This document shows positions 11,317-32,000 of a stretch of DNA of 32,000 nucleotides, piece after piece. The DNA is from Patescibacteria group bacterium (GTDB lineage Bacteria > Patescibacteriota > UBA1384 > XYA2-FULL-43-10): assembly GCA_041674405.1 (NCBI GenBank), contig JBAYVT010000001.1, positions 218,827 to 250,826 on the forward strand, read 5' to 3'. Below the pieces are notes generated by a model that had not been told where the DNA came from, did not search any database, and saw nothing but the letters and a program-made list of their open reading frames with translations. The position numbers and the translations under genes were made by a program. The stretch's first letter is position 1; each line of letters opens with the position of its first letter.

Positions 11317-11343
11317 TGATTTCAACAATTAAAAGGGAATAAT

Positions 11344-11369
11344 AAAAACACCAATTTGTTGGTGTTTTT
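11344..11369. terminator. bidirectional terminator
   Basis: aaaaacaccaa / ttggtgttttt 11-bp stem with a tttg loop. Confidence 0.8.
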
Positions 11370-11373
11370 ATTA

Positions 11374-11392
11374 TGGTTCGGGGATAGGGATT
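11374..11392. repeat. 19-bp direct repeat of the tRNA-Gln 3' end (tggttcggggatagggatt), copy 1
   Basis: Identical to 11546-11564. Similarity continues about 5 nt further with a 1-nt indel. Confidence 0.9.
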
Positions 11393-11493
11393 TCGGGCAT
11401 TCGCGCTGCTCACTTCTAAAAACCCTCGGTTTTTAGTGTTTTCCGCCAGCGGGAGACCAATTGTTCTCCCGACCCCTCTCTCGTCCGAACCCC
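11374..11493 (-). other. unassigned structured ~120-nt element ending in a copy of the tRNA-Gln 3' end
   Basis: The ends pair (GGTTCGG/CCGAACC, GAGAGGG/CCCTATC, TCGGG/CCCGA). Internal hairpins are GGGAGA..TCTCCC and CTAAAAACC..GGTTTTTAG. It sits between two terminators. Confidence 0.3.
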
Positions 11494-11504
11494 ATATATA
11501 ACCA

Positions 11505-11536
11505 CCCAAAAGAAAAACGACCACCAAAAGGTGATC
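11505..11536 (-). terminator. terminator downstream of tRNA-Gln
   Basis: Minus strand GATCACC TTTT GGTGGTC followed by GTTTTTCTTTT. Confidence 0.7.
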
Positions 11537-11545
11537 ATTTTTCTT

Positions 11546-11789: not shown

Positions 11790-11793
11790 GCTT

Positions 11794-12118
11794 TATGAAG
11801 CATCCAATAAGCCGGGTTTTGTATAACGATAGCAATCTATCTACGCGTGGAGACCGCAGGTCACCTTCCGAGTCGGAATTGATGTCAGGCGGTCCACTCC
11901 ACTTGCACCGAGCTAGGCTTGCCACAGACGCACATTGCTGTACGAACGCGTGAGCTCTTACCTCACGATTTCAACCTTACCGGTCTTGCGACTTAGGCGG
12001 TATATTTTCTGTTGCGCTGTTCTCAGAGCTTTCACCCTGCTTGTTTTCACAAGCGCTCCACTCTGCGGTGCCCGGACTTTCCTCCCTTGCGGGTAGCTAT
12101 CTAGAATGCTTTTAAAGC
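11794..12118 (-). ncRNA. rnpB: RNase P RNA, bacterial type A, short (~325 nt)
   Basis: Conserved 'GAGGAAAGTCCGGGC', 'CAACAGAAAATATACCGCC', 'GGTAAGGTTGAAA..GGTAAGAGCTCAC' and 'ACAAAACCCGGCTTAT'. P1 AAGCATTC/GGATGCTT. Ends approximate. Confidence 0.9.
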
Positions 12119-12124
12119 ATTAAT

Positions 12125-12153
12125 ATTGTATCCGAAAATGACCAAAAAGTCAA
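12125..12153 (-). promoter_or_regulatory. rnpB promoter (TTGACT-17-TACAAT)
   Basis: Revcomp of 12148-12153 is TTGACT and of 12125-12130 is TACAAT, with a 17-nt spacer. Confidence 0.6.
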
Positions 12154-12180
12154 TGTTTAAGGGTTGGAACTCACAAAAAG

Positions 12181-12202
12181 ATTATCTTATATTAAAATAT
12201 TT
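12181..12202. repeat. 22-bp perfect direct repeat attatcttatattaaaatattt, left copy
   Basis: Identical to 13557-13578. The two copies bracket the G+C-rich HD/MTase cassette. Confidence 0.9.
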
Positions 12203-12244
12203 AAATTATAGGATATTGATACAAAATTTTAGTTTTAACCGAAG

Positions 12245-12268
12245 GCGCCAGGCCGCAAGGCCTGGCGC
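12245..12268 (-). terminator. GC-rich hairpin downstream of the HD/MTase gene
   Basis: gcgccaggcc / ggcctggcgc 10-bp stem with a gcaa tetraloop. Weak U-tract. Confidence 0.5.
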
Positions 12269-12278
12269 TCGGTGATAC

Positions 12279-13385
12279 TTAGTTGGTTCGGCCGAAAATC
12301 AGCCGGAAGGCTTCCGGGTCAACGCACGGATAGCCAGAAAAGTCGAAGTCGTGGTCTTCTGCGATCAGCGAGAAGCCTGGGAGCATCGCTTCGATCTGTC
12401 GACTTGCGACCTCGATGCTGTCTGCACCATAGGTCGGCGTGTAGCTCTCGATGACCTCGAGTCGCCCATCGCTTAAAGACAATACTCGGAGGAGTTCCTG
12501 TGGGCTGAGCGCATCGGGGCAGCGTAGTGCTACGTTCGCCATCACGATATCGCCAGCATCATCCGGAATCGGCAGTGCGTCCGCCGTCCCGGGCAAGATA
12601 ATCTCTGGGGCGGAGTTGCGCAGCTTGGCCGTCTCGACAGAAAGCACAGCCGCGACTTTGCGATCTGCCTGTGAGGGTTCGACGCCGATGATCAGCTCAA
12701 GCGGAGTATGTTTCCGAAAGAGGCTGATTGGCAGTCTGCCGGGCCCAATCTCTATAAGGACCTTTGGCTCCTCGCCGCGCTCCGCACAAAGCACACCGTA
12801 GTTGCGAATGATGTTTCTCGCTACATTGGTGTGCCATTCGCTGGCATGGTTCGTGCCCCAGTACTGGGGAGTGAGCCTGATCTCCGGCCAGAGATAGGCC
12901 ACCATTCCATGGAGATTCGGCCAGAAGAAGTCCCAGCCACCCTCAAAGCCGAACTCGGCCGCGAGTTTGTCGAAGTCCTCGCGAAAATCCGAGTACGCGC
13001 CAGCCATCCGTGATAGGTCGGCAGCACGCAAGATTTTCGCCTCGACGGTGACCGGCATGACGCCAGCATTGGTAGGTTTGATCGCATCGATCACTGCGGC
13101 GATCATGTGCTCCAGGTAGCCAAGTTTCCGCATCTCCTCGGCAGCCACCTTGGCACTCAGCTCCTCAGGAGTCGAGCACCCGAATTCTCGCGGATCCTTG
13201 CCAAACAACGCATCATGGAAAAGCGCTGCCCAGACAAGGACCTCAATCGAGACGTGGATGCCGCAATGTCGGCATCGTTCTGCAAGCATGAAGGCAGTTG
13301 CGCAGACCCCCTGAGCATGCCTCCAATTATGGTACGGCCGCATGGTGTAATACGGCCAAGCCAATTTCTCGATGAATCCCAGCAT
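12279..13385 (-). CDS. HD-domain phosphohydrolase fused to a class I methyltransferase-like domain (368 aa), G+C-rich cassette
   Basis: AAGGGGGA SD lies 5 nt before ATG 13385. HD signature 'YHNWRHAQGV ... ALFHDA'. C-terminal 'VLIEIGPGRLP', 'LIIGVEPS', 'DIVMANVAL'. Confidence 0.65.
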   Translation of the reverse strand: MLGFIEKLAWPYYTMRPYHNWRHAQGVCATAFMLAERCRHCGIHVSIEVLVWAALFHDALFGKDPREFGCSTPEELSAKVAAEEMRKLGYLEHMIAAVIDAIKPTNAGVMPVTVEAKILRAADLSRMAGAYSDFREDFDKLAAEFGFEGGWDFFWPNLHGMVAYLWPEIRLTPQYWGTNHASEWHTNVARNIIRNYGVLCAERGEEPKVLIEIGPGRLPISLFRKHTPLELIIGVEPSQADRKVAAVLSVETAKLRNSAPEIILPGTADALPIPDDAGDIVMANVALRCPDALSPQELLRVLSLSDGRLEVIESYTPTYGADSIEVASRQIEAMLPGFSLIAEDHDFDFSGYPCVDPEAFRLIFGRTN

Positions 13386-13500
13386 CTTGGTCCCCCTTGT
13401 GTACAAGCCTGAATTTCGAGCAGTGCTAGATTAACACAAAAAACATGTTCCGTAAATTATCCAAACATTAGTACATCCATCCAAATCTTATTATTCCAAA

Positions 13501-13538
13501 CGTAACAATTTCTCCGCGACCGCGGAGAAATTGTTACG
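13501..13538. terminator. bidirectional terminator (18-bp perfect palindrome)
   Basis: cgtaacaatttctccgcg / cgcggagaaattgttacg with flanking A and T runs. Lies downstream of the Nudix/thrS operon. Confidence 0.8.
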
Positions 13539-13556
13539 TTTTTATTTCTAAAACAA

Positions 13557-13578
13557 ATTATCTTATATTAAAATATTT
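13557..13578. repeat. 22-bp perfect direct repeat attatcttatattaaaatattt, right copy
   Basis: Identical to 12181-12202. Confidence 0.9.
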
Positions 13579-13604: not shown

Positions 13605-14030
13605 TTATTTAATCATTTTCTTTAGATAAATATCTACTGGCTCCTTCGTGGTTTGGGTAAGCTTTTTGGGAAGTTTATCCGGTGGGAACCATCTCATATC
13701 CTCGTGCTTATTCGGTTCCATATTTTTTGGTTCCTGGCCGTCTCGGATTTTTGCCAGGTGGTGGATCGCCACCCAATGCTGACCTTCAATTATATGGTCC
13801 GTGTATCCTAGACACTCTAAGATATCAATATCGACTCCAATTTCCTCACGAATCTCTCGCTTTAGCATCTCTTCAACTGTTTCACCAAATTCAACCGTGC
13901 CGCCGGGCTTCGTCCAAAAACCGGCATCGTTATTGCTTTTTGACGTTCGTTTTAATAATAGAATTTCGTTGTTGTCATTGACAATTAAGGCACCGCCACC
14001 AACTCCGATGAAGTCTTTCCCTGGTTTTAT
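13605..14030 (-). CDS. Nudix hydrolase (141 aa if initiated at ATA 14030)
   Basis: Perfect Nudix box 'GGTVEFGETVEEMLKREIREEIGV' straddles the ORF-track ATG (13868), so the gene must start upstream. The only open frame there has no ATG/GTG/TTG. AAGGAG lies 5 nt before ATA 14030. Confidence 0.7.
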   Translation of the reverse strand: MKPGKDFIGVGGGALIVNDNNEILLLKRTSKSNNDAGFWTKPGGTVEFGETVEEMLKREIREEIGVDIDILECLGYTDHIIEGQHWVAIHHLAKIRDGQEPKNMEPNKHEDMRWFPPDKLPKKLTQTTKEPVDIYLKKMIK

Positions 14031-14032
14031 TT

Positions 14033-15757
14033 TTACTCCTTGACTTCTTTAATAACCGCAGATAAATCTTCTTGCCCTTTGTCGCCTTCGCCATATTTAC
14101 GGACAGCGACTTTTTCAGCCTCGATTTCTTTGTCGCCGACAATAAGCATATATGGGATTTTTTGCATCTCGGCTTCGCGAATTTTTTTGCCGATCGATTC
14201 AGTACGATCATCAACCTTAACTCGAATTCCGGCTTCATTGAGCTCCTTTTCGATTTTTGCGGCGTAGTCCAAATGTTTATCGGAGATTGGCAACACAATA
14301 GCCTGGACAGGAGCGAGCCATGTCGGAAATGCGCCGGCAACATTCTCGATATATATACCAAGAAAACGCTCGATTGCCCCATAAATCACGCGATGGATCA
14401 TTACAGGACGGACTTTTTCACCTTTTTCATCAATATAGGTCAAGTCGAATGTTTCCGGATTGGCAAAGTCAAGCTGTATTGTGCCGCACTGCCATGTGCG
14501 ACCGATAGCATCCTTTAGATGAAAATCAAATTTCGGGCCATAGAATGCTCCATCACCTTCATTAACTTTATGTTCGATTTTGTTTTCAGCAAGAATTTCC
14601 TTCATTGTCGATTCTGCCTTTTCCCAAACCTCATCCGAACCGACTGACTTTTCCGGCCTTGTTGAAAGCTCAATATGATCAACTTTCATGCCAAATTTCT
14701 CATACATTTCAAAACATAAATCAAATACCTTTTTGATTTCTTCCTTTACCTGATCAGGCCGGCAATAGATGTGGGCATCATCTTGTGTAAACTGGCGAAG
14801 GCGCATAAGCCCATGGACTTCGCCCGAACCTTCGTAGCGGTGGACCAAGCCAATCTCCCCCATCTTTACCGGCAGATCTCGGTATGAATGAACCTTAGTC
14901 CTGTAAATCAGCATACCGCCGATGCAGTTCATTGGCTTTACAGCATAGGAATAATCTTTTTCATCGGGAGTTCTGGCTAAATACATTCTTTCGGCATAGT
15001 TTTTCATGTGTCCGCTCTGCTCCCAGACTTCTTTTAGCATCATGATTGGGGTATTTACCTCTTCGTATCTCTCACGGCGATGAACCTGCCGCCAATACTC
15101 GAGCATTTTTTGAAATACAATCCAGCCATTATCATGCCAAAAAACAAAGTTTGGTCCTTCCTTGTGAAACGAAAAGAGATCCAGCTCCGTGGCAAGTTTG
15201 CGGTGATCGCGCTTCTCAGCTTCCAGTATGATTTCTTCATACTTTTTAAGCTCAGACTCGTTTTCAAACGCAAGAGCATATATCCTCTGTAGCATTTTGT
15301 TTTTCTCACTACCTCGCCAATAAGCACCGGCAATTTTATCAAGCTTAAAACCAACATTTTTGAGATCAGAGGTTGTATCAACGTGAGGACCAGCACAAAG
15401 ATCGACAAATTCTCCTGTTTTGTAAAGTGAAACTTTGTCATTGCCACTACTCTTCAAATCTTTAATCAACTCCAATTTGTAATTTTGTTTGTCAAATTTT
15501 TCAATTGCTTGGCTTATTTCCACTTCTGATTTTTCAAAGGCAAGATTCTTTTCAATAATCTCGCGCATTTTTTTCTCAAGTTTTGGCAAATCCTCCGGCA
15601 CCAAAGCTCGGGGCAAGTCAAAATCATAATAAAAGCCATTTTCAATCGCCGGACCAATACCAAGTTTTGCATCAGGGAACATCTCAAGTACTGCCATCGC
15701 CAGTACATGGCTCAGCGAATGCCTCATGGTTTCAAGTTCAAATTTTTTTTCAGCCAT
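14033..15757 (-). CDS. thrS: threonine--tRNA ligase (no N-terminal TGS domain)
   Basis: 'RHSLSHVLAMA', 'GPAIENGFYYDF' and class II motif 'HRYEGSGEVHGLMRLRQFTQDDAH', plus a C-terminal anticodon-binding domain. Confidence 0.95.
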   Translation of the reverse strand: MAEKKFELETMRHSLSHVLAMAVLEMFPDAKLGIGPAIENGFYYDFDLPRALVPEDLPKLEKKMREIIEKNLAFEKSEVEISQAIEKFDKQNYKLELIKDLKSSGNDKVSLYKTGEFVDLCAGPHVDTTSDLKNVGFKLDKIAGAYWRGSEKNKMLQRIYALAFENESELKKYEEIILEAEKRDHRKLATELDLFSFHKEGPNFVFWHDNGWIVFQKMLEYWRQVHRRERYEEVNTPIMMLKEVWEQSGHMKNYAERMYLARTPDEKDYSYAVKPMNCIGGMLIYRTKVHSYRDLPVKMGEIGLVHRYEGSGEVHGLMRLRQFTQDDAHIYCRPDQVKEEIKKVFDLCFEMYEKFGMKVDHIELSTRPEKSVGSDEVWEKAESTMKEILAENKIEHKVNEGDGAFYGPKFDFHLKDAIGRTWQCGTIQLDFANPETFDLTYIDEKGEKVRPVMIHRVIYGAIERFLGIYIENVAGAFPTWLAPVQAIVLPISDKHLDYAAKIEKELNEAGIRVKVDDRTESIGKKIREAEMQKIPYMLIVGDKEIEAEKVAVRKYGEGDKGQEDLSAVIKEVKE

Positions 15758-15815: not shown

Positions 15816-16274
15816 TTATTTTATTAGACCCAATCTTTCAAATAATTCAATCGATGGTGGGGTTAGTTTAATTTTGTCTAGTTCCGAGATATCAGCCCAT
15901 TGAAATATTTCAAGATCGTCGCCAATTTTTACCAAAATCTCACTCGCGTCTTCACTTGCCGATACCTTAAAAACATTGAAAGACATTGTGCACAAGACTT
16001 TTTCTCCGGTTGTTCGCAACGTTTTTTCCGACTCGCCAATTCCTTTGTCATCAATCAATTCAATGCTGTAATTCTTAATATTGATTCCTGTTTCCTCTGA
16101 AATTTCTCTCCGAAGTGCCGTCTCAAAATTTTCATCTTCATCCACGCCTCCTCCCGGAAGATGCCAAAAGTCCACGTAAACTCCGCCTCCGTGAGCGTGT
16201 TTTTTACCAAGAAATATTTTTTTATCTTTTGAAATAATCATTGCGGAGACTATTTCACGATGGATTGTGCGCAT
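15816..16274 (-). CDS. Nudix hydrolase
   Basis: Nudix box 'GGGVDEDENFETALRREISEETGI'. Confidence 0.85.
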   Translation of the reverse strand: MRTIHREIVSAMIISKDKKIFLGKKHAHGGGVYVDFWHLPGGGVDEDENFETALRREISEETGINIKNYSIELIDDKGIGESEKTLRTTGEKVLCTMSFNVFKVSASEDASEILVKIGDDLEIFQWADISELDKIKLTPPSIELFERLGLIK

Positions 16275-16297
16275 TGTATTGATATTAAACTAAATAA

Positions 16298-16355
16298 AAA
16301 GACCAATTATCTCGAGACCCCAAACTTTGGGGGGTTCCATCTCGATATGGTCTTT
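16298..16355. terminator. composite hairpin terminator downstream of glyA
   Basis: Outer aaagacca/tggtcttt, inner ccccaaactttgggg, T-runs on both strands. Confidence 0.6.
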
Positions 16356-16472
16356 ATTTGCCGATTCGTTTCGGCTTACGCTGTTTCTCGCCGGTTGGTG
16401 AATCCGGGTCACTAAAACAGATTAATTGACATTAGTTTAACACATTTAGATAAGAACGTAAATATCTTCAGA

Positions 16473-17720
16473 TTATTTCGTTATTCCCGGCACCGGAAAA
16501 ACTTTTGTCATTTCTGCGACTTCCTTTTTGATTTCGGCAAGCTTTGATTCATTATTCATATTTTCAGCAACTATATTGAATAATTCAGCGATTCGCTGCA
16601 TCTCTCCTGCTCCCATGCCACGAGTTGTCAGAGCGGCGGTGCCAACACGGATTCCAGAAGTGACCTTTGGGGGATTTGGATCATTCGGGACGGCATTTTT
16701 GTTTACCGTAATGCCGGCTTTGTCGAGCGCGACTTCGAATTCCTTACCGGTGATTTTTTTGCTCTGTAAATCAACCAAAATTAAATGATTATCCGTACCA
16801 CCTGTTACCAAATCAAAGTCTAAGCTCATCAGGGTTTTGGCAAAAGTCTGCATATTGTCGAGGACTTTACCAATATACTCTTTAAATTCAGGCTTCAATG
16901 CTTCACCAAAAGCAACTGCCTTAGCGGCGATAATATGCTCAAGCGGACCTCCTTGAATACCCGGGAAAATCGTTTTGTTGATTTTTTTTGAGAGCTCCTC
17001 GTTATTGGTCATGATAATTCCTGACCTAGGGCCTCGCAAAGTTTTGTGAGTTGTTGAGGTAACAATATCTGCAACTCCAACAGGGGATTCGTGGTAGCCC
17101 GTCGCAACGAGACCAGCGATATGGGCAATGTCTGCAAATAAAAGTGCACCGACTGAGTTTGCAATTTCGCGAAATTTTTTAAAATCCAGCTTTCGCGGGT
17201 ATGCAGAGTATCCACACATGATCACTTGTGGCTTAGCTTCTTTTGCTAATTCAGCAATTTGATTATAATCAAGCACTCCTGTTTCTGGGTTCAGACCATA
17301 AGAATAGGATTCAAAAAACTTACCCGAAAATGAAACCTTTGATCCGTGGGTCAAGTGCCCGCCGGCATCAAGCGATTGGCCCATAATTTTATCACCCGGT
17401 TTCAAGGTGGCAAAATACGCCGCCATATTAGCGCTGGAACCAGAATGCGGTTGGACATTGGCAAATTTGCAGCCGAATAATTTTTTAAGCCGATCAATAG
17501 CCAGGTTTTCGGCTTGATCGATAAACTCACAGCCGCCGTAATACCGTGCGCCGGGATAACCTTCGGCATATTTATTGGTTAAAACCGAGCCTTGTGCTTC
17601 AAGCACTGCTTTTGATGGATAATTTTCAGACGCAATCATCTCAAGCCCTTCAGTCTGGCGCCTCTCTTCACAACGGATGATGTCATACATTTCTTTGTCG
17701 TTTTTTTCAAGCTCGGTCAT
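16473..17720 (-). CDS. glyA: serine hydroxymethyltransferase
   Basis: PLP-lysine motif '[14 protein letters not shown]' with full-length SHMT-like sequence. Confidence 0.95.
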
Positions 17721-18373
17721 TTTTCCTCCAATTCATGATATTCAATTAACTCTTTTTTAAATTCACTATAAAATCTTTTTAAGAACAAATTCCTGCGCCG
17801 TGCAATTTTCTTGGAATACGCAAAATGCAATTTATCCCATTTTATCATCGGATCTCTTCTGATTTGATCCAGCAGGCTATGATTCAGCCATATTTCTTCA
17901 TCTTTTGGTACCGGTTTGTCAGTATATATTGGGAAACCTCTCTCGCCGAAGTAATATGCCAATCGCGCTATGCCGATTGCGCCAAGCATTTCAATTTTAT
18001 CGGCATCTTGCAAAATCCTTACTTCATCTTTGTCTGATTTTTCAGCTTTATCTCCCTCATGATAGTTGTCGTGCAATTTAATAACTTCTAGAACAGCAGC
18101 AATTTTTTTCTTCGGGAAGCCAACTTCCGGCAGCCATTTTTCTGCTATTTCCATGCCATATTTGTAGTGGTGCCAATCGTCATCTTCATGATGCATAAAA
18201 CCAATATCATGCATTAGGCATGCTGCTTCCAAAATTTCCGTATCACAAGGAACTTTTGCTGCAATTTTAAGCGCGTTATCCCGCACTCGAGTTAAATGGA
18301 AAAAATCATGACAGGCAGTATATCCTTCCAGATACTTCTTGATCTTTTTTTCCAAATCCTTTTGCCAGCTCAT
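17717..18373 (-). CDS. HD-domain metal-dependent phosphohydrolase
   Basis: '[10 protein letters not shown]' and 'ACLMHDIGF'. ATGA overlap with the glyA start. Confidence 0.8.
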
Positions 18374-18474
18374 GTATTTCCTTGGAGTTACATGAATATT
18401 ATAACCAGATCAGGCAATTTCTGCCACAGAAAATGAAAATATATGAGCTTTCTATGTAGTTATTAATCAGAAAT

Positions 18475-20082
18475 TTACAGCTCTTTCAGCCGTTCTTCAA
18501 ATTCTTCGTCCAATTGAGATTTCAAATCTTCATGAAATTTGTCGTCATAATCTTTAACTGTGTCTTTAACTCGCCCGCAGCTTTTTTCTTCGAGGCAAAA
18601 ATGCGGAATTTGGCATTTGGTCACCATCAGTTTTGCAATATTAGGCAATTTTTTCCGTTCAAGAATTTTTTTAATTTTTTCCATTTCTTTAATAGCCATT
18701 GGGCGCAATTGCGCTTCAGCGGTCGTGCAGGTCCTCACCGGGTAATAACCAGCAATTAGATTATATAAATCGTATTGCTGCAAAATATCCACCCTAACTC
18801 CGCGCGGCATAATGAAAATAGCATCAGAGGGCTTAATTTTGTATTTCCCAATGAGTAAGAAATATGCATCGAGAGCATTAATGACAATATTCAAATATTC
18901 ATAAAGCAGACTTTTCTGCTTTTTTATAGTAGGCGGAATAGTGAAAAAACGATCAATAATTTTAAGGTCAGCCTCCGCTAGTTTTTCTTTGGCAATTTTA
19001 TTGCGGTATTTCTCAAAGATTGGCTGGCAGCGGTCAATAGCATAATACAGCGAGTCTGGCGTCATTGGTACTGTCCTATGGCGTTTTTTGTCTCCCCAAA
19101 CCCGCCAGGAAACTGCTGATAGCACCTTGACCGTAAGAGCAGTATTGTAGTCACGGCAAAAGTCATGCCGTAGAGCTAATAACTTACGCCAATTTTTTTT
19201 GATCATCCTTTTATTTGGGACTAATTCCTTTTCTTTCTTTACGATTTCCTTGGCGCTCCTATCAAGGCCTGGTGTAATTGTTGCATCTAAGCTAATTACA
19301 TCGGACAAGTCGTTGGAGATACCTTTAGCTTTAATTAGTTCGCGTGTAATGTTTATCTTTGCTGGATCCTTAAAGGGATTAGGATAAGGAAGAACATTTC
19401 GGCCTGCAAGATCTCTGGAAGCATATACTAAATCCACGCCATATTTTTTTAGCTCTTTTTCAATTTTTTGGATCATCATCTGGGCTTCTTCAGGCATCCA
19501 ATCACCTTGCGATTCTGCTTCCTTCTTAAAAGCTATTACAGATTCAATCGGGTAAGCGATAATACCGGTACCATATATACCATAATGCAGTGTTTTTGAT
19601 GCATCATCTTTGTTGATTCCACTTTTGAGCAATTTGTTTAGAAAATTGATATTATTATCTGAAATTTTTTTATAAATTGCTTTTGCTTCGGCATTATTGT
19701 TAATGGCAGTAGGGTATACTATGTCATCTACAGTGGTATCGGTGCGGCGTCCTGAAGCCATGAGCGCAGACGAGAAAACCATCCCGGTCATCAAAGAGTC
19801 AATAAATTTTGAAGCTTCATAGGTAAAACAGATCGCCGGTGTCGTGGCAATCGAGGCATGACCTCGAAGAGAGGACCGGCGAATAATGCCTTTGACTTTT
19901 TTGTCTAGGTCCTGGCCTTTTTCACAGACATCTTTGTAAAGATCTTTGACGGATTTGCCTTTAAATGTCATTAAAGCAGACAGAGAAACCAAATCTTGAG
20001 GCTTAAGATATCCTGTTTTATCTGCTAAAACCGGAATCACCCCCAAAAATGTGACTTTCATGTCTGATACTTTTCTTGCCAT
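18475..20082 (-). CDS. thyX: long ThyX-like protein (tandem ThyX repeats; putative flavin-dependent thymidylate synthase)
   Basis: N-half 'RGHASIATTPAICFTYEAS...SGRR' lacks RHR. C-half 'VKVLSAVSWRVWGDKKRHRTVPMTPDS' has it. Operon context with dcd, dCMP deaminase and glyA. Confidence 0.5.
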   Translation of the reverse strand: MARKVSDMKVTFLGVIPVLADKTGYLKPQDLVSLSALMTFKGKSVKDLYKDVCEKGQDLDKKVKGIIRRSSLRGHASIATTPAICFTYEASKFIDSLMTGMVFSSALMASGRRTDTTVDDIVYPTAINNNAEAKAIYKKISDNNINFLNKLLKSGINKDDASKTLHYGIYGTGIIAYPIESVIAFKKEAESQGDWMPEEAQMMIQKIEKELKKYGVDLVYASRDLAGRNVLPYPNPFKDPAKINITRELIKAKGISNDLSDVISLDATITPGLDRSAKEIVKKEKELVPNKRMIKKNWRKLLALRHDFCRDYNTALTVKVLSAVSWRVWGDKKRHRTVPMTPDSLYYAIDRCQPIFEKYRNKIAKEKLAEADLKIIDRFFTIPPTIKKQKSLLYEYLNIVINALDAYFLLIGKYKIKPSDAIFIMPRGVRVDILQQYDLYNLIAGYYPVRTCTTAEAQLRPMAIKEMEKIKKILERKKLPNIAKLMVTKCQIPHFCLEEKSCGRVKDTVKDYDDKFHEDLKSQLDEEFEERLKEL

Positions 20083-20120
20083 AAAACTCCTTGAAAAAGT
20101 TAATTAGTATATATTAAATT

Positions 20121-20702
20121 TCAAAATCGTAACTCTTCTTTGATAAGTTCAACTTCGGGTGTCATATCAAAATACTCGCTGTTTATCTTGATTTTGCCTC
20201 GAAATTTTTCGCAAATTATTCCCCTTTTATTGGCCAAGCGTCTTGCTTCCGGCTCAGATTCTTTCTTGGATCCGTCACTGCCTTCCTTGACTCTTAAATA
20301 TTCGTCTAAATAAATAATCTTTTTGATTCCAAGATTGTTCAGTGCCTTTAAGCAGTCATAGCATGGAAAGAGGGTAATATATAAGGTTGAGCCTTTCAGG
20401 CGCTCAGTGTTGCCGGAATTAATAATCGCATTTATCTCGCTATGTGCCCCACGGCAACGCTGAATTTCATTCGTGTCCGGATCTCCATGCACCTTTGCGC
20501 AACCTTCATCAATACAATGAATATCGCCGGCGGTCGGCCCATTATAACCCAAAGAAATTACCCTGTGGTTTTCATCCACAAAAACGGAACCGACTTTGTG
20601 AAAAATACAAGCGGTTCTTTCCGCAGCAGCAACGGCAATGGTCATAAAAAACTCATCCCAAGAAAGCCTATGGTTTCTTTGATATTTCTTATCTTTTGCC
20701 AT
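20121..20702 (-). CDS. dCMP deaminase (ComEB-like cytidine/deoxycytidylate deaminase)
   Basis: Zinc-binding motifs 'HSEINAI' and 'PCYDCLKAL'. Confidence 0.85.
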   Translation of the reverse strand: MAKDKKYQRNHRLSWDEFFMTIAVAAAERTACIFHKVGSVFVDENHRVISLGYNGPTAGDIHCIDEGCAKVHGDPDTNEIQRCRGAHSEINAIINSGNTERLKGSTLYITLFPCYDCLKALNNLGIKKIIYLDEYLRVKEGSDGSKKESEPEARRLANKRGIICEKFRGKIKINSEYFDMTPEVELIKEELRF

Positions 20703-20716
20703 TTGTCCTCCGGTTA

Positions 20717-21256
20717 TTACACTTGGATTTCTTTACCCTTGCTGGTTACCCTTCCACCTTTCCATTGTCCCCGATATGCATTTGATTTCCCCGATATCTC
20801 AAAAAACATTATATGAACGATTCTGGCACCTAGTTCAATTTCAAATTCGCATGGACCAGAATTATAAAACAGAAATGAAAGTTCCCCGCAATATCCTGGA
20901 TCGATTTTTCCACCGGACATAATAATTCCTGATCGAAACAGGGTGCTCCTAAGCCACATCGCAGCAGTCAAATTCAGTGGCATATTTACCTTTTCGTTAG
21001 TTGTCACCAAGTAGCAATCGCCCGGTTTGAAAATAACTGATTGTTTTTTTTCTGGTATATATTCATATAACAATTTTGAGTCAGTCGAGTCGCGTTCGGT
21101 AAGCCCCATAAATCCCCTGCCGCTTATTTCATGCACTTTTCCAAGACACAGGTCAAAACCACAGCCCTCTGGATTTGTAAGCTCTCTTTCACACAGGTTT
21201 TCAACTAATTTTTGTTTTTTGACAAGATCCAAGAGTTTGTCCACGCCGAGTACCAT
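20717..21256 (-). CDS. dcd: dCTP deaminase / dUTPase-fold protein
   Basis: 'GFDLCLG', 'LRSTLFRSG' and 'GKIDPGYCGELSFLFYN' match the Dcd pattern. Confidence 0.8.
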   Translation of the reverse strand: MVLGVDKLLDLVKKQKLVENLCERELTNPEGCGFDLCLGKVHEISGRGFMGLTERDSTDSKLLYEYIPEKKQSVIFKPGDCYLVTTNEKVNMPLNLTAAMWLRSTLFRSGIIMSGGKIDPGYCGELSFLFYNSGPCEFEIELGARIVHIMFFEISGKSNAYRGQWKGGRVTSKGKEIQV

Positions 21257-21995: not shown

Positions 21996-22868
21996 TTACT
22001 TTTTGGCTTTTTTCTTGACCGCAATTTTGGCAGCTTGTTTCGGTGCGACTTTCGGTACAGTAATAGTCAAAATTCCGTTGTCCATCTCAGCTTCGGCCTT
22101 TTCTGATTTAACTTCGGATGGCAGTGTGAAGCTTCTAGTAAATGATCCAGTATACATTTCTTTGTGATAAAATCCCTCGTCTTTTTCTTCCTTTTCCTCT
22201 TTTTTCTCACCAGAAATTGTCATTATGTTATCGGCAACTTCAACAGTGACATCTTCCTCGGCAACTCCCGGAAGTTCGGCTTTGACTATGACAGCGTCTT
22301 TGGTTTCTTTTACATTGATTTTCGGCATTCCGCCAGCCTTGGCTGGGGTGACAACGCTTTCCTCAAAAAGACGATCCATTGCATCACGGAGAGTAACCAT
22401 TTCTCCGAAAGGGCGCCACGGCCCAATTTCTCTTGGCATAGAATTCTCCTTTACCCCGAGCCTGTCGAGGGGTTTACCCACCTCATCGAGCCTGTCGAGG
22501 GGTTTACCCACCTCATCGAGCCTGTCGAGGGGTTTACCCACCTCATCGAGCCTGCCGAGGAGTCTCTCGTCCTCAATTTGTCCGAGTTGCCCAGCAGTTG
22601 CGGGGTTATGATTAATAATTTTTATTGGTGAATTATTTTCAAACATTTGATTAATTTCTTTTTCAAAATCAAATATTTCCTCAAATGCAGAATTGAAAAA
22701 ATTGCACATCGATACAACAAGGGGTAGTGATGGCATATATTTCCCCTGCTCAAGAGCGATCACAGACTGCCGGGAAATACCCAGAGCTTCGGCCAGTTCC
22801 TCTTGTGAAAGATCGTGTTGGCGACGAAGTTCGCGCAATCTGTTTTGAATGTTTGGTTCTTCTTTCAT
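21996..22868 (-). CDS. XRE-family HTH regulator fused through a decapeptide repeat linker to an Hsp20/alpha-crystallin domain (290 aa)
   Basis: N-terminus 'LRELRRQHDLSQEELAEALGISRQSVIALEQGK'. Three copies of 'LDEVGKPLDR'. C-terminus 'VKETKDAVIVKAELPGVAEEDVTVEV...ISGEKK...FTRSFTLP...AEMDNGILTITVPK'. Internal AAGGAG+ATG at 22439 could also give a stand-alone 147-aa sHSP. Confidence 0.75.
   Translation of the reverse strand: MKEEPNIQNRLRELRRQHDLSQEELAEALGISRQSVIALEQGKYMPSLPLVVSMCNFFNSAFEEIFDFEKEINQMFENNSPIKIINHNPATAGQLGQIEDERLLGRLDEVGKPLDRLDEVGKPLDRLDEVGKPLDRLGVKENSMPREIGPWRPFGEMVTLRDAMDRLFEESVVTPAKAGGMPKINVKETKDAVIVKAELPGVAEEDVTVEVADNIMTISGEKKEEKEEKDEGFYHKEMYTGSFTRSFTLPSEVKSEKAEAEMDNGILTITVPKVAPKQAAKIAVKKKAKK
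22461..22550. repeat. 3 perfect tandem copies of a 30-bp unit (cctgtcgaggggtttacccacctcatcgag), in frame within the CDS
   Basis: Units at 22461, 22491 and 22521, with partial degenerate copies on both flanks (22454-22460, 22551-22560). Confidence 0.95.
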
Positions 22869-27842: not shown

Positions 27843-27871
27843 TTGACATCCAATCACCTTTTTTGTATATT
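27843..27871 (+). promoter_or_regulatory. promoter of the HAD cassette (TTGACA-17-TATATT)
   Basis: Hexamers at 27843-27848 and 27866-27871. Confidence 0.55.
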
Positions 27872-27911
27872 GTCGGGGTCCGACAACCCTAACACCACAA
27901 GGAGAAACGCA

Positions 27912-28424
27912 ATGTCTAGACCCGAGCCGGATATGCGGTTTCACTCGATCGGACACGTCCCGGTCGATGTCCTCCGATACGCAGGGATCAAGGTCCTGCT
28001 CTTTGATGTCGACAATACCTGCGCGCTCCGCAAGTTTGGTTGCCTGACCAACGAGGCGATCGACTTGATCATGAAGGCAAAGGCAGCTGGAATGACCGTC
28101 GTCCTCGTGTCGAACGTCGTCTCCAGCAAGCGCCGGATCGAGCGCGTACGAAAGATGGCGTACGACAACGATGTGGCCTTCGTCTGTGCTACATTTCCGC
28201 GACTCAAGCCGCACCCCGCCCCGTACCAGGAAGCCATGAGCCTTGCTGACGCCAAGCCGAATGAGGCTTGCATGATCGGTGACCAGCTCTTCACCGACGT
28301 GAAAGGCGCAAAGCGTCTCGGCATGATGGCAATTCTGGTAGATCCACTCGGCAGTGACCACCTTGTCACCACACCGAGGCGCCTGCTCCAGAACTTGGCC
28401 CTCCGCAAGGTGGCCTACACCTGA
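27912..28424 (+). CDS. YqeG-like HAD-IIIA phosphatase (170 aa), G+C-rich cassette
   Basis: AAGGAG SD lies 7 nt before ATG 27912. Motif I 'LLFDVDNT', motif II 'VLVSN', motif IV 'MIGDQLFTDV'. Confidence 0.8.
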   Translation: MSRPEPDMRFHSIGHVPVDVLRYAGIKVLLFDVDNTCALRKFGCLTNEAIDLIMKAKAAGMTVVLVSNVVSSKRRIERVRKMAYDNDVAFVCATFPRLKPHPAPYQEAMSLADAKPNEACMIGDQLFTDVKGAKRLGMMAILVDPLGSDHLVTTPRRLLQNLALRKVAYT

Positions 28425-28450
28425 AGCAGCAACCCATCGCAGTTCCGTGA

Positions 28451-28474
28451 CCTCTCCCCCGTGGGAGAGGTTTT
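28451..28474 (+). terminator. GC-rich rho-independent terminator of the HAD gene
   Basis: cctctccc / gggagagg stem with a ccgt loop, then tttt. Confidence 0.75.
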
Positions 28475-28523
28475 CGGTTTAGATAATGAAATTAGCTAAT
28501 TCGGCGAAATTAAACCACCATTT

Positions 28524-28542
28524 ATGTTCGGCAAATGTTCGG
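28524..28542 (+). promoter_or_regulatory. direct repeat ATGTTCGG-N3-ATGTTCGG (= GTTC-N7-GTTC) upstream of the LexA-MTase gene; candidate operator
   Basis: GTTC at 28526-28529 and 28537-28540, 11-bp phasing. Lies just upstream of the candidate promoter GTTACA (28552) -17- TACAAT (28575). Confidence 0.35.
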
Positions 28543-28617: not shown

Positions 28618-30153
28618 GTGTTGACGAAAAGGCAGCAAGAAATTCTGGACTATATAAAAAAATATCAGGCTAAACATAAATTTTCTCCCTCTCTTGATGA
28701 AATTCGACAAAAGTTTGGGTTTGCCTCCGTTTCGACGGCACACTTCCACGTGTCAAAGCTTCAGGAAATGGGATATTTGGAAAAAGGAAACCATCAGGCT
28801 CGCTCGATTGACGCAACAAACCAAGAAGAATTGATGCGCATTCAGATAGTTGGCACTATTGCTGCCGGATTTTCTATTGAAGCAATAAAATTATCAGATC
28901 GCGACATTGCAGTCTCGACCAAAGAATTGGACCCTAAACAAAAATATTACGCCCTCAAAGTGAGGGGTGACAACATGACCGACGAAGGAATTTTCGATGG
29001 TGACATTGTTGTTTTAAGAAATCAAAGTACAGCAAAAGAAGGAGAAACAGTCGTTGCAATTATCGATGGCAATAAAGCCATTCTGAAAAAATTTTTTAAG
29101 GAAAAAAATAGAATTAGATTGCAATCAGCAAACCAATCAATGCTGCCGATCTTCCGAAAAGACGCCGAAATAAAAGGTGTGGTTGTTAAGATCATAAGAA
29201 ATCTGGAAAATAATTCCGAAAACACATTAGCAGACAGAAAAAAAGAATATTTACTTAAAATCAAAAGTAAAAACCCAAACAGCCAAAATAAGTACAAAAG
29301 AGTGGCTCTTTCCCCGATTAGATATGCCGGTGGCAAGAGCCTGGCAGTAGGCCATGTCATAGAACTGCTTCCTGATAATATCACCCGGCTTGTTTCTCCG
29401 TTTTTTGGCGGTGGCTCTATAGAAATTGCAGCAAGCAAACACTTGGGACTCGAAGTCATTGGATATGATATTTTCGACATTTTGTGCAATTATTGGAATT
29501 TTCAAATTAAAAATCCTGAGCTTTTATATACGAGTCTCAAAAAACTCAAGCCAGATAAGGCGACATTTGAAAAAATTAGATTTATTCTAAATGATGTTTG
29601 GAAGAAGAAAACTAAGCTAGATCCTCTTACCATGGCTGTTTACTATGTTTACAACTTCAACCTATCTTACGGCCCCGGATTTATGGGATGGGCTTCAGAT
29701 ATTTATCTGGATGAATCTAGATATGAAAGAATGCTCGCACGAATACGAGATTTCGATCCACAAAACCTCAGAGTAGAGTGCGCCGATTTCAGGGACGTTA
29801 TGAAAAAACATGTGAGTGATTTTTTATATTGCGATCCCCCATACTATATCGGGGCAGATTCAAAAATGTTCAAAGGTATATACCCCATGAGAAATATCCC
29901 GGTCCATCACAACGGATTTCCACATGAAGAGCTCCGAGATCTCTTGAAAAAACACAAGGGTGGGTTTGTCTTATCCTACAATAATTGCCCGACTATCCGA
30001 GAGTACTATAAAGATTTTCAACAATTATTTCCCACCTGGCAGTACACGATGGGCCAGGGCGAAACGAGGATTGGAACAAATAGAATCAAACATGGCGACA
30101 ATCACATTAAAGAATCGCACGAACTCTTGATTTATTCGCCGCCAAAAATATAG
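28618..30153 (+). CDS. LexA-like repressor (wHTH + S24 domain, Ser->Asn) fused to a Dam-family D12 N6-adenine DNA methyltransferase (511 aa)
   Basis: GGGAGG SD before GTG 28618. LexA-like 'LTKRQQEILDYI', 'IAAGF', 'VRGDNMTDEGIFDGDIVV', 'AILKKF'. MTase motifs 'IRYAGGKS', 'SPFFGGGSIE', 'YCDPPYY'. Confidence 0.85.
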   Translation: MLTKRQQEILDYIKKYQAKHKFSPSLDEIRQKFGFASVSTAHFHVSKLQEMGYLEKGNHQARSIDATNQEELMRIQIVGTIAAGFSIEAIKLSDRDIAVSTKELDPKQKYYALKVRGDNMTDEGIFDGDIVVLRNQSTAKEGETVVAIIDGNKAILKKFFKEKNRIRLQSANQSMLPIFRKDAEIKGVVVKIIRNLENNSENTLADRKKEYLLKIKSKNPNSQNKYKRVALSPIRYAGGKSLAVGHVIELLPDNITRLVSPFFGGGSIEIAASKHLGLEVIGYDIFDILCNYWNFQIKNPELLYTSLKKLKPDKATFEKIRFILNDVWKKKTKLDPLTMAVYYVYNFNLSYGPGFMGWASDIYLDESRYERMLARIRDFDPQNLRVECADFRDVMKKHVSDFLYCDPPYYIGADSKMFKGIYPMRNIPVHHNGFPHEELRDLLKKHKGGFVLSYNNCPTIREYYKDFQQLFPTWQYTMGQGETRIGTNRIKHGDNHIKESHELLIYSPPKI

Positions 30154-30693: not shown

Positions 30694-30781
30694 TTTGAAT
30701 CTCCCATTTGATAAATATCAAGGCTACACTACTCCCGTAGAGGTAAAAAGGCAAATTCGCCGAGAACAAAGTCTAAATTTT

Positions 30782-30810
30782 GTTGACGGAAGGCTACTAA
30801 AACGCTATTA
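30782..30810 (+). promoter_or_regulatory. promoter of the CSD cassette (TTGACG-17-TATTAT)
   Basis: Hexamers at 30782-30787 and 30805-30810. Confidence 0.5.
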
Positions 30811-30850
30811 TCTCGTTGCGTACCATCCTATATACTACGAGGTGAGGCTC

Positions 30851-31450
30851 ATGCCTCGACGGAACCACCAAAAACACGGGGCAGGCAGGAGCCGAACTGG
30901 CTCGGCGTTCTTCAAGAAGCTGGGGGGAGGTGATGTCGTATACGACCTTCCGGCCGATAACTCGCTGGATGATGGCTGGATTGGGGAAGCTCCGGGTCGC
31001 TACTTCGGTTTGCCCGGCTTCGTTCCGGTTACTGCCGAAGAGCCGGAGCCAAAGCCAGAGCCAGATCTGCCTCACGGCGTCGGATTCACAGAGCCGATCG
31101 AGGGCGCCGCTGGCGTGGTGCAGTTCTACCACCACGAAAGAGGATTTGGCTGGATCAAGCTCGACCACGACAGAAGAACCGTTTTCGCGCATGTCAGTGG
31201 GCTTGTGCACAGCAACGGGGAAAAGCCCTTCCTCTGGAAAGGCATGGAGGTCACCTTCGACGTCACCTTCGAGGCACGATTCGATCGGTGGCAAGCCGTG
31301 CATGTTCGCCTCACAAACAGCCAGAGCTTCACGGAGTGGGGTAGTAAGCGCGGCATCTACTTCGAGACCGAGGAGGACTTCCTCGGGCACCGGCAGATAT
31401 ATCTGCGCGATCGCAGATCCCATAGGGAGCGCGTGCGGGTTTGCCCGTAG
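30851..31450 (+). CDS. cold-shock-domain protein with long N- and C-terminal extensions (199 aa), G+C-rich cassette
   Basis: GAGGTGAGG SD before ATG 30851. CSD core 'GVVQFYHHERGFGWIKLDHDRRTVFAHVSGL...GMEVTFDV'. Confidence 0.7.
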   Translation: MPRRNHQKHGAGRSRTGSAFFKKLGGGDVVYDLPADNSLDDGWIGEAPGRYFGLPGFVPVTAEEPEPKPEPDLPHGVGFTEPIEGAAGVVQFYHHERGFGWIKLDHDRRTVFAHVSGLVHSNGEKPFLWKGMEVTFDVTFEARFDRWQAVHVRLTNSQSFTEWGSKRGIYFETEEDFLGHRQIYLRDRRSHRERVRVCP

Positions 31451-31478
31451 TCTCGCAACAAGACACATATAGTCGTAC

Positions 31479-31509
31479 ATGCGCCTCGCCGGCTCCCGGC
31501 GAGGCGCAT
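31479..31509 (+). terminator. GC-rich hairpin terminator of the CSD gene
   Basis: atgcgcctcgccgg / ccggcgaggcgcat 14-bp stem with a ctc loop. Confidence 0.65.
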
Positions 31510-31530
31510 TCGTTATATACATTTATATCA

Positions 31531-31559
31531 TTGACATTTGATCGTAATTTCTATATAAT
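31531..31559 (+). promoter_or_regulatory. ssrA promoter (TTGACA-17-TATAAT)
   Basis: Consensus hexamers at 31531-31536 and 31554-31559. Confidence 0.75.
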
Positions 31560-31608: not shown

Positions 31609-32000
31609 GGGGGTGTATTAGTTTCGACAGAAGGACCTTAAAAACATATCTGCAAGTAAGTGGGTAAGCCGCTTTATAAGCGTTTACAAATTTAAGTGCA
31701 AAAACACTTTCAGAGAGAGTAAAGACTGCTTTCGCAGGATTTGCTTTTTCGCCAGTTGCTGCTTAATTAATTAGTAGCAACCATCCGCCCTTCCGCTTTT
31801 CGACGGGAGAGATCGGGTGTTATATTTCGAAATGCTGATTTTCCGGTTCTTGCGCGGAAAATAGTAAGCCAAACAGCGAGATAAGATAATAGTTTTCTGC
31901 CTTGGTTGAGCTATTATTCGAACAAATCACCAAGGCAAAACTTGTAGACGATATGTTTGAAGCCTTTTGGACAGGGGTGCAACTCCCCTCACCTCCACCA
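31609..32000 (+). ncRNA. ssrA: tmRNA (transfer-messenger RNA)
   Basis: 5' GGGGGTG...TTTCGACA. 3' GGACAGGGGTGCAACTCCCCTCACCTCCACCA (T-arm, acceptor, CCA). Tag frame from GCA 31698 to TAA 31764-31766 ends ...FAFSPVAA. Confidence 0.95.

Follow-up and report, generated by a model that had tools for sequence, protein, structure and literature searches.

What process leaves a single gene of unusual base composition standing between two perfect copies of a short sequence? This question is raised by a 32,000-nt stretch (hereafter the window, to which all coordinates refer) of contig JBAYVT010000001.1 from a Patescibacteria group bacterium (GenBank assembly GCA_041674405.1), the reverse complement of positions ~660-32,659 of the 395,669-bp contig k141_1464549 in ENA ERZ27247358. 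In the window, two copies of a 22-bp direct repeat bracket a GC-rich gene, predicted to encode an HD-domain protein fused to a methyltransferase, between the thrS-Nudix operon and rnpB; the genes concerned all lie on the minus strand. We found the repeat to be a genuine structural junction. At a probability of roughly 40%, we read it as the trace of one recombination event, most likely a Campbell-type crossover, that inserted or relocated the unit and duplicated the 22 bp, relocation or replacement being as likely as first arrival.

The repeat, ATTATCTTATATTAAAATATTT, was found in two exact copies on the plus strand, at 12181-12202 and 13557-13578, as the first-pass annotation of this DNA had reported, and no third copy was present in the window at up to three mismatches. 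It is the longest dispersed exact repeat of the window, its 22 nt comparing with a mean of 15–17 nt and a maximum of 19–20 nt in 100 Markov-1 simulations matched in dinucleotide frequencies to the whole window or to its AT-rich part. The 22-mer matched in 0 of 100 shuffled sequences, and the runner-up repeat in the window, of 19 nt, is a partial copy of the tRNA-Gln 3' end. At up to four mismatches the 22-mer was also absent from a further 7.6 kb of the contig and from every locus bearing a relative of the gene; within the ~40 kb examined, it does not behave as a common dispersed motif. With flanks included, the copies agree at 26 of 28 positions (12175-12202 versus 13551-13578; 28-nt family D6), identity tapering on one side of the repeat and ending sharply at the other, right-hand boundary. 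The filled arrangement recurred at 100% identity over 3,695 bp, covering both junctions, in an independent Logan assembly of SRR6484325, and a JGI fragment (P0281) that starts within the gene and reaches ~1.5 kb downstream agrees with it. An assembly artefact is therefore ruled out.

Read along the minus strand, the locus runs thrS, Nudix, copy 2, palindrome, promoter, open reading frame (ORF) of 368 codons, GC hairpin, spacer, copy 1, rnpB promoter, rnpB and tRNA-Gln. By ascending coordinate, its features are:

11793-12153, minus strand: rnpB with its promoter, the left host flank (rnpB at 11793-12112, Rfam RF00010, 149.7 bits)
12181-12202, plus strand: direct repeat copy 1, an exact match with an imperfect extension to 12175, 27 nt upstream of the rnpB -35 hexamer
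12203-12244, no strand: AT-rich spacer of 42 nt between copy 1 and the terminator hairpin
12245-12268, minus strand: GC-rich hairpin, the presumed gene terminator (-30.2 kcal/mol, z -5.9; no U-tract)
12279-13385, minus strand: HD-methyltransferase gene, 368 aa (GC 0.576, third-position GC (GC3) 0.67; HD domain by Pfam match, methyltransferase fold by profile and model)
13430-13465, minus strand: promoter region of the gene, with extended -10 TGTGTTAAT (13438-13430) and a weak -35
13498-13541, no strand: perfect palindrome with 21-nt arms (13498-13518 and 13521-13541, 100% complementary), between copy 2 and the promoter
13557-13578, plus strand: direct repeat copy 2, an exact match with an imperfect extension to 13551, 26 nt past the Nudix stop codon
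13605-15757, minus strand: thrS and the Nudix hydrolase gene, the right host flank (thrS 14033-15757; Nudix 13605 to ~14030, directly after thrS)

The first-pass annotation had placed a GC-rich gene, its hairpin, its upstream region and a palindrome between the repeats, and all four are there; the palindrome stands between copy 2 and the promoter, and its arms measure 21 nt, not 18. The flanks were also described correctly, with the sigma-70-like rnpB promoter (TTGACT-17-TACAAT at 12153-12125 in a promoter scan) on one side and the end of the thrS-Nudix operon (stop codon at 13605) on the other. The gene has a GGGGGA ribosome-binding site at ~13397-13392, and its 10-bp hairpin (12268-12245) begins 10 nt past the stop codon; a terminator scan made no call at this hairpin, which lacks a T run. 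The palindrome (AATTTCTCCSCG..CGSGGAGAAATT), lying 15 nt past copy 2 on the minus strand and ~60 nt before the extended -10, folds at -31 to -34 kcal/mol (z ~-9.6) on both strands; it is terminator-like on the plus strand, where TTTTTATTT follows, and weakly so on the minus strand, where TTTGG follows. On the minus strand, the last 6 nt of copy 2 form the -10 element of a promoter-like TTGATA-17-GATAAT (13585-13557), of which the TTGATA lies just outside the repeat. Removal of the interior and one repeat copy in silico left a coherent spacer of 75 nt from the Nudix stop codon to the rnpB -35 hexamer, with TTGATA-17-GATAAT upstream of the rnpB promoter.

The unit differs from its surroundings in composition. 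Its gene has a GC content of 0.576, compared with 0.42–0.43 for the flanking genes and 42% overall, and GC at the first, second and third codon positions is 0.62/0.44/0.67, compared with 0.46–0.55/0.30–0.38/0.34–0.44 in neighboring genes. All three positions are thus shifted, as in a gene that may long have evolved under a GC-rich bias. The compositional island (12214-13432) falls inside the repeat-bounded interior (12203-13556), and the copies enclose the sole such island of a 15-kb stretch, to within 42 and 124 nt. The claim of a compositionally distinct, self-contained unit bracketed by the repeat is borne out by this contrast together with the unit's own promoter and terminator, and the segment has the behavior of a transcription unit that is foreign in composition, insulated and portable.

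We compared the segment with seven loci read from the handful of close relatives that word-indexed searches of 5.8 billion proteins returned; L085, L086 and L088 derive from runs SRR22388067, SRR22315504 and SRR22388053. The closest, subfamily A, are 60% (L086), 55% (L085) and 48% (L087) identical to the window protein, L087 coming from the window's own metagenome. The promoters of L085 and L086 (TTGACA..TGTGATAAT) align with the -10 and 5' leader of the window promoter, and homology stops at the -35 region. At the other end, the terminator hairpin GCGCYAGGCC/GGCCTRGCGC is kept in L085, L086 and L087 with two compensatory pair changes, and homology ends just past it, the sequence beyond being unrelated. 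Judged by these limits, the inherited block is promoter-ORF-terminator, with the 22-mer and the spacers outside; the 12203-12244 spacer and the non-conserved cassette flanks had no homology among all fetched sequences. A palindrome is shared in another arrangement. L086 ends in a perfect palindrome, AATTTCTCCCCGTACGGGGAGAAA, at 1316-1353 (the Logan contig stops inside its symmetric copy), which is related to that of the window as AATTTCTCC[C/G]CG..CG[G/C]GGAGAAA, with the C/G swap compensated in the other arm. The L086 palindrome follows the terminator at a distance of ~70 nt, whereas that of the window precedes the promoter; the two thus stand on opposite sides of the HD-methyltransferase unit. 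This would fit circularly permuted copies of one circle, and equally a palindrome separating adjacent cassettes.

A direct repeat around inserted DNA is left either by a single crossover between a circle and the chromosome, the repeat being the shared sequence, or by the filling-in of a staggered break, and 22 bp is about the minimal length for RecA-type exchange. In the sequence of events that we favor, a 1.35-kb self-contained unit (insulating palindrome, extended -10 promoter, ORF and GC hairpin) would have been placed into the 75-nt Nudix-rnpB spacer, the single event leaving the 22-bp target sequence on both sides of it. The most likely route would be a Campbell-type single crossover between a circular 1,376-bp copy, carrying one 22–28-bp stretch shared with the chromosome, and the chromosomal spacer. 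The enzymes would act in trans and would come either from the host's homologous recombination system or from a recombinase gene at another place in the genome, and the same repeats would permit the unit to loop out again. We favor crossover over fill-in because 22 bp lies far beyond known target duplications, because inverted repeats and a transposase are lacking and, with little weight, because the loss of identity is gradual on one side alone (26/28), a pattern that two independent sequences with a common core would give. The unit may belong to a pool of GC-rich genes found repeatedly near thrS and the deoxynucleoside triphosphate (dNTP) cluster in this Patescibacteria clade, which would make relocation or replacement within a hotspot as likely as a first arrival. 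The neighborhood may accordingly be read as a hotspot with repeated exchange from this pool or as the home of an old GC-rich resident that was locally relocated. Both are compatible with the data; as the gene has ameliorated in L087 and in the distant L095 copy, high GC cannot be a built-in property of its family, and this speaks for repeated exchange. Single-gene and island transfers are common in Patescibacteria (PMC12455944).

The searches for further traces of such an event bear on this reading. Integrase, transposase or recombinase domains were recorded neither in the window nor in the 7.6 kb beyond, in agreement with the earlier remark that no recombinase is nearby; no phage protein families were found near the gene, and the insert ends (12203.. 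and ..13556) have no terminal inverted repeats. An exact 22-mer scan of JGI metagenome contigs gave four single matches on unrelated contigs of 26–36% GC, one of them encoding vWA and nucleotidyltransferase proteins, and these matches are due to chance. Viral contigs contained no match to the 22-mer or the palindrome, and no member of the protein family. Among 185,579 species representatives the closest thrS, from Saccharibacteria, Berkelbacteria or other Patescibacteria metagenome-assembled genomes, is just 62% identical, which indicates that the organism probably has no sampled close relative outside its own population. The closest Nudix protein among the 5.8 billion is 65% identical, rnpB was absent downstream of thrS-Nudix in the syntenic relatives, and the Nudix relatives P0006 and P0010 lie in other gene contexts.

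Several results weigh against the recombination event that we favor. Neither an empty site nor a circular junction turned up, nor a second insertion using this 22-mer, and the att-like crossover site or microhomology scar proposed in the first-pass annotation is to that extent not established. The genome scope of the 22-mer search was ~40 kb of a 395-kb contig. The similarity of the bases preceding the repeat, also pointed out there, holds in the 26/28 identity, but the 4/6 match of the flanks themselves equals the chance expectation in A-rich DNA. Around the relatives' copies in L085, L086, L087, L088 and L093, neither the 22-mer nor any other flanking repeat was found, and, since the relatives in L085, L088 and L093 have thrS or the dNTP cluster close by, the gene may be an old resident. 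Finally, the check proposed earlier, for further 22-mer copies beside other GC-rich genes, found none in the ~40 kb, and the four other GC-rich islands of the window have no flanking direct repeats. The route that made the 22-bp repeat is therefore not the general arrival route of such GC-rich genes. These four islands, each with its own promoter-like site and GC hairpin and two of them without a Pfam match, are:

1-1284: GC-rich single-gene island, GC3 within 0.61–0.70
1848-2444: GC-rich single-gene island, GC3 within 0.61–0.70
27844-28525: GC-rich single-gene island, HAD phosphatase, GC3 within 0.61–0.70
30777-31542: GC-rich single-gene island, cold-shock domain, GC3 within 0.61–0.70

The account that survives best beside the recombination event, doubtful though we consider it, is that the gene is an old resident of the thrS/dNTP neighborhood and was never inserted, the 22-mer having been duplicated as a regulatory or promoter element or by a rearrangement that brought rnpB-tRNA-Gln alongside. 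The gene neighborhoods of the relatives lend it weight. L085 starts with a thrS C-terminus 82.6% identical to that of the window over 178 residues, and its HD-methyltransferase gene lies 2.5 kb downstream, flanked by two other GC-rich genes. L088 likewise starts with a thrS C-terminus (74.5% identical), and a 35%-identical relative lies 1.3 kb downstream, adjoining a divergent TrmB-family regulator. In L093 a 36%-identical relative stands between a TrmB regulator of the same kind and an HTH-HSP20 gene, and directly adjoins a dUTPase-Tmk-ThyA-DHFR-HD-SHMT-dCMP-deaminase-Nudix cluster that corresponds to the run dUTPase-dCMP-deaminase-ThyX-HD-SHMT-Nudix-thrS of the window. Between L088 and L093 the TrmB regulators, whose composition is host-like, share 62% of their residues, and they are kept beside HD-methyltransferase partners that are just 36% identical. 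Dyads of the form TGTCAATAAT..TGACA lie upstream of the HD-methyltransferase genes (L088 1340-1440, L093 7840-7960, L085 2950-2975) and possibly represent an operator kept across these loci; beside the window copy there is no TrmB gene, and the motif is present there in degenerate form only. The overlap of copy 2 with a promoter-like site also speaks for an old resident. Copy 1, however, has no -35 element, so that the promoter was not duplicated as a unit; GC at all three codon positions is shifted, as after a long stay in a GC-rich genome; the genes between thrS and the HD-methyltransferase gene vary in every genome, as do its immediate neighbors in every relative; and repeats placed exactly around a compositional island are the expected signature of insertion. 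What these neighborhoods do establish is that the gene is not a random one-off foreign arrival and that its family is tied to one neighborhood, since that neighborhood is shared across lineages whose housekeeping proteins are 60–83% identical. The description of the locus as a foreign cassette thus holds for its foreign-looking composition and its insulation, but has to be qualified by the relatives, which also lie near thrS or the dNTP cluster and are mostly GC-rich there.

We regard as unlikely a target-site duplication by fill-in, in which a trans-acting transposase or integrase makes nicks 22 nt apart, or a staggered break is followed by end joining, and the unit is ligated and the overhangs filled. 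The sharp right-hand boundary and the perfect identity over 22 nt would be expected from it, and it makes a local recombinase unnecessary; in L095, moreover, a gene for a LigD primase-polymerase is found two genes past a distant relative, so that end-joining functions do exist in the group. Against it, the insert ends do not have terminal inverted repeats, and no transposase is recorded in the 40 kb. To our knowledge, 22 bp also exceeds the duplications of known transposon and casposon classes.

A bolder account, and a distinctly unlikely one in our estimate, is that the unit belongs to a recombinase-less, clade-specific cassette pool, whose insulated GC-rich genes are repeatedly swapped at a thrS/thymidylate-dNTP hotspot, the 22-bp repeat and the long palindrome being its first visible recombination sites. 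The gene has a GC3 of 0.58–0.80, above its flanks, in L085, L086, L088 and L093, and genes in this range are compositionally foreign even where the adjacent TrmB regulator and the putative operator are conserved. In L087 the GC3 of the gene is intermediate (0.44 versus 0.34), and the distant copy of L095, beside uvrA, alone is host-like.

Integration by a host Xer-type tyrosine recombinase at a dif-like 11-6-11 site, which would make the unit akin to IMEX or the dif modules of Acinetobacter, seems improbable. The 22-mer contains TTATATTAAAA, a 9/11 match to the XerD-arm consensus TTATGTTAAAT, and copy 2 with its cassette-side flank reads TTCTAAAACAA|ATTATC|TTATATTAAAA, with an 8/11 dyad symmetry that 0.8% of AT-rich 28-mers reach; this route, too, is at ease with the absence of a local recombinase. 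Yet one 8/11 match is what chance would give over the ~60 positions scanned, and the symmetry is missing from copy 1. Overall, the similarity to the dif of E. coli or B. subtilis falls inside the background range or close to it. Known dif modules are bounded by inverted, not direct, sites (PMC6449649). Nor does the local GC skew point to a terminus here, its maximum at ~11-12 kb and its minimum at ~23.5 kb being explained by the 12-kb block of minus-strand genes between them and not by a replication terminus and origin. The weakest explanation, a chance coincidence of two AT-rich intergenic stretches, is very improbable: the sequence is of low complexity and recurs exactly in the four unrelated metagenome contigs, but neither the shuffles nor the simulations produced such a repeat, and its copies closely frame the sole compositional island of the 15-kb stretch.

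We then examined the product of the gene, deposited as MFA7243907.1 ([quoted passage not shown]). Its N-terminal, phosphodiesterase-like part matches the Pfam HD family (PF01966) over residues 22-123 with 27.1 bits, above the cut-off of 22, with a weaker Pfam match to cyclic-nucleotide phosphodiesterases, and all 13 family members compared keep the metal ligands H19, H23, H57-D58 and D123. With its H...HD...D motif and helical domain, the protein belongs to the superfamily of HD-domain metal-dependent phosphohydrolases. An AlphaFold model built from 13 sequences (pLDDT 89, pTM 0.87) consists of a helical N-terminal half (residues 1-165) and an alpha/beta C-terminal half. The family profile matched the Bacillus methyltransferase YcgJ in the PDB over residues 211-322 (E 3.6e-4), and the top Foldseek matches were the class I methyltransferases TrmB (tRNA m7G46), KamB/NpmA-type (16S rRNA A1408) and YcgJ, at E 1e-6 to 1e-5. 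Motif I is degenerate in the window protein (IEIGPGR; IEIGPGRLP) and reads as the canonical LDLGCG, or as VDLGTG, in relatives, in which Pfam Methyltransf_11 scores under its cut-off. The C-terminal domain is thus predicted, with support at the fold level, to be a Rossmann-like class I S-adenosylmethionine-dependent methyltransferase fold, and to this degree the HD/methyltransferase label of the first-pass annotation is upheld. Taken together, the folds and the gene neighborhood predict the fusion of a metal-dependent phosphohydrolase with a methyltransferase of RNA or nucleotide type.

No curated family spanning the HD-methyltransferase fusion was found. An exhaustive HMM search gave 1,175 relatives at E <=1e-3, of which 76 reached E <=1e-30; among the relatives are HD-only forms and one distant deoxynucleoside kinase-HD fusion (P0165). 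This kinase fusion, together with the dNTP cluster adjoining the HD-methyltransferase gene in both genomes (the window and L093), hints at a role in nucleotide metabolism. A tblastn search for relatives in 50,697 phage records and in plasmids gave no match, the IMG/VR viral contigs likewise gave none, PADLOC had no match for the protein, and PHROG gave generic phosphohydrolase similarity only. An origin from phages, plasmids or defense systems was rejected, as the phage, plasmid, viral-contig and defense-system libraries hold no relatives. Paralogy with the neighboring 218-aa HD gene was likewise rejected, the similarity being weak and at superfamily level.

Some features of the surrounding DNA were recorded in passing. 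The Nudix ORF (13605-14035, minus strand) contains no ATG, GTG or TTG before the Met codon at 13868, and gene callers therefore give it 87 aa; its 140-aa conceptual product aligns over 96–97% of its length to relatives of 140–148 aa, and its start is likely ATA at 14030-14028, 5 nt after AAGGAG and right after the thrS stop codon. The thymidylate/dNTP cluster (window 15816-21256; L093 121-6856) comprises dUTPase/DCD, dCMP deaminase, ThyX or ThyA with DHFR, a 218–220-aa HD protein, SHMT and Nudix. Downstream of tRNA-Gln, at 11340-11545 on the minus strand, a tRNA-like segment of ~125 nt is followed by a terminator hairpin; it closes by repeating the 3' end of tRNA-Gln (19 nt exact, 24/27), and neither ARAGORN nor Rfam called it. 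Together, rnpB, tRNA-Gln and this element look like a single RNA operon. A tmRNA gene (31609-32000, plus strand, to the window end) directly follows the cold-shock-domain island. A single ORF at 28618-30153 (plus strand) fuses a LexA DNA-binding domain, an S24 peptidase and a D12-class N6-adenine DNA methyltransferase, and four tandem 30-bp repeats, up to 100% identical, lie at 22427-22575 (minus strand) within an HTH-HSP20 fusion gene (21996-22868).

Genomes of the Candidate Phyla Radiation (CPR) are streamlined and known from metagenomes alone. The junctions of single-gene acquisitions are seldom visible in them, and transfer is usually inferred from composition or phylogeny. The locus adds one more small, horizontally mobile gene unit whose junction can be seen, in a type of genome known for frequent transfers, and the junction is testable, since the empty-site and circle-junction sequences can be spelled out for read searches. 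It also poses a puzzle, in that the HD-methyltransferase fusion, in one related lineage after another, stays GC-rich yet keeps its place by thrS and the genes of nucleotide metabolism. If this reflects targeted replacement out of a GC-rich pool, it would be a new route of gene flow in episymbiotic bacteria; otherwise the locus would be an ordinary small acquired islet.

How does the unit compare with known systems? Transposons and insertion sequences have terminal inverted repeats, a transposase and a target duplication of 2–14 bp, whereas here there are no such inverted repeats, no transposase was found and the duplication is 22 bp. Integrase-mediated islands carry att direct repeats at tRNA or tmRNA genes, and the locus resembles them in having a direct repeat, within the 15–60-bp range, around acquired DNA next to a stable-RNA gene. 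It differs in that there is no integrase, the insert is a single gene, and the repeat lies 69–90 nt upstream of the rnpB 5' end, outside the gene, with no RNA 3' end rebuilt. Integron gene cassettes are single-gene mobile units with attC, a GTTRRRY core, intI, attI and a cassette array. Like them, the unit combines one gene with a palindrome, which in L086 lies on the other side, as if circularly permuted; unlike them, it has its own promoter, the palindrome end GTTACGT misfits the GTTRRRY core (C at an R position), there is no intI, attI or array, and the 22-bp repeat lies outside the palindrome and is not a 7-bp core.

Acinetobacter dif modules and IMEX are Xer-dependent modules without a recombinase of their own (PMC6449649, PMC7399989). 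The unit shares with them a size of ~1–5 kb, one or few genes, the lack of its own recombinase and short, specific boundary sites; their sites, however, are 28-bp XerC/XerD sites, inverted in dif modules, and here the repeats are direct and their likeness to dif is not above chance. With the genes and islands transferred in Patescibacteria (PMC12455944), it shares a gene of atypical composition in a streamlined CPR genome and the occurrence of several per 32 kb, and it differs from them in its explicit junction and in the recurrence of the same GC-rich family in the same neighborhood of related genomes. In design, the unit comes closest to the phage moron, an independent transcription unit added between phage genes (PMC3594210): it is one ORF of atypical composition with its own promoter and stem-loop terminator, intergenic between unrelated transcription units. 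Morons are not defined by flanking repeats, and the neighbors here are the housekeeping genes thrS-Nudix and rnpB rather than prophage genes, with no relatives found among the phage records and viral contigs searched. Collectively, the unit departs from integron cassette, tRNA island, transposon and moron in at least one defining feature of each.

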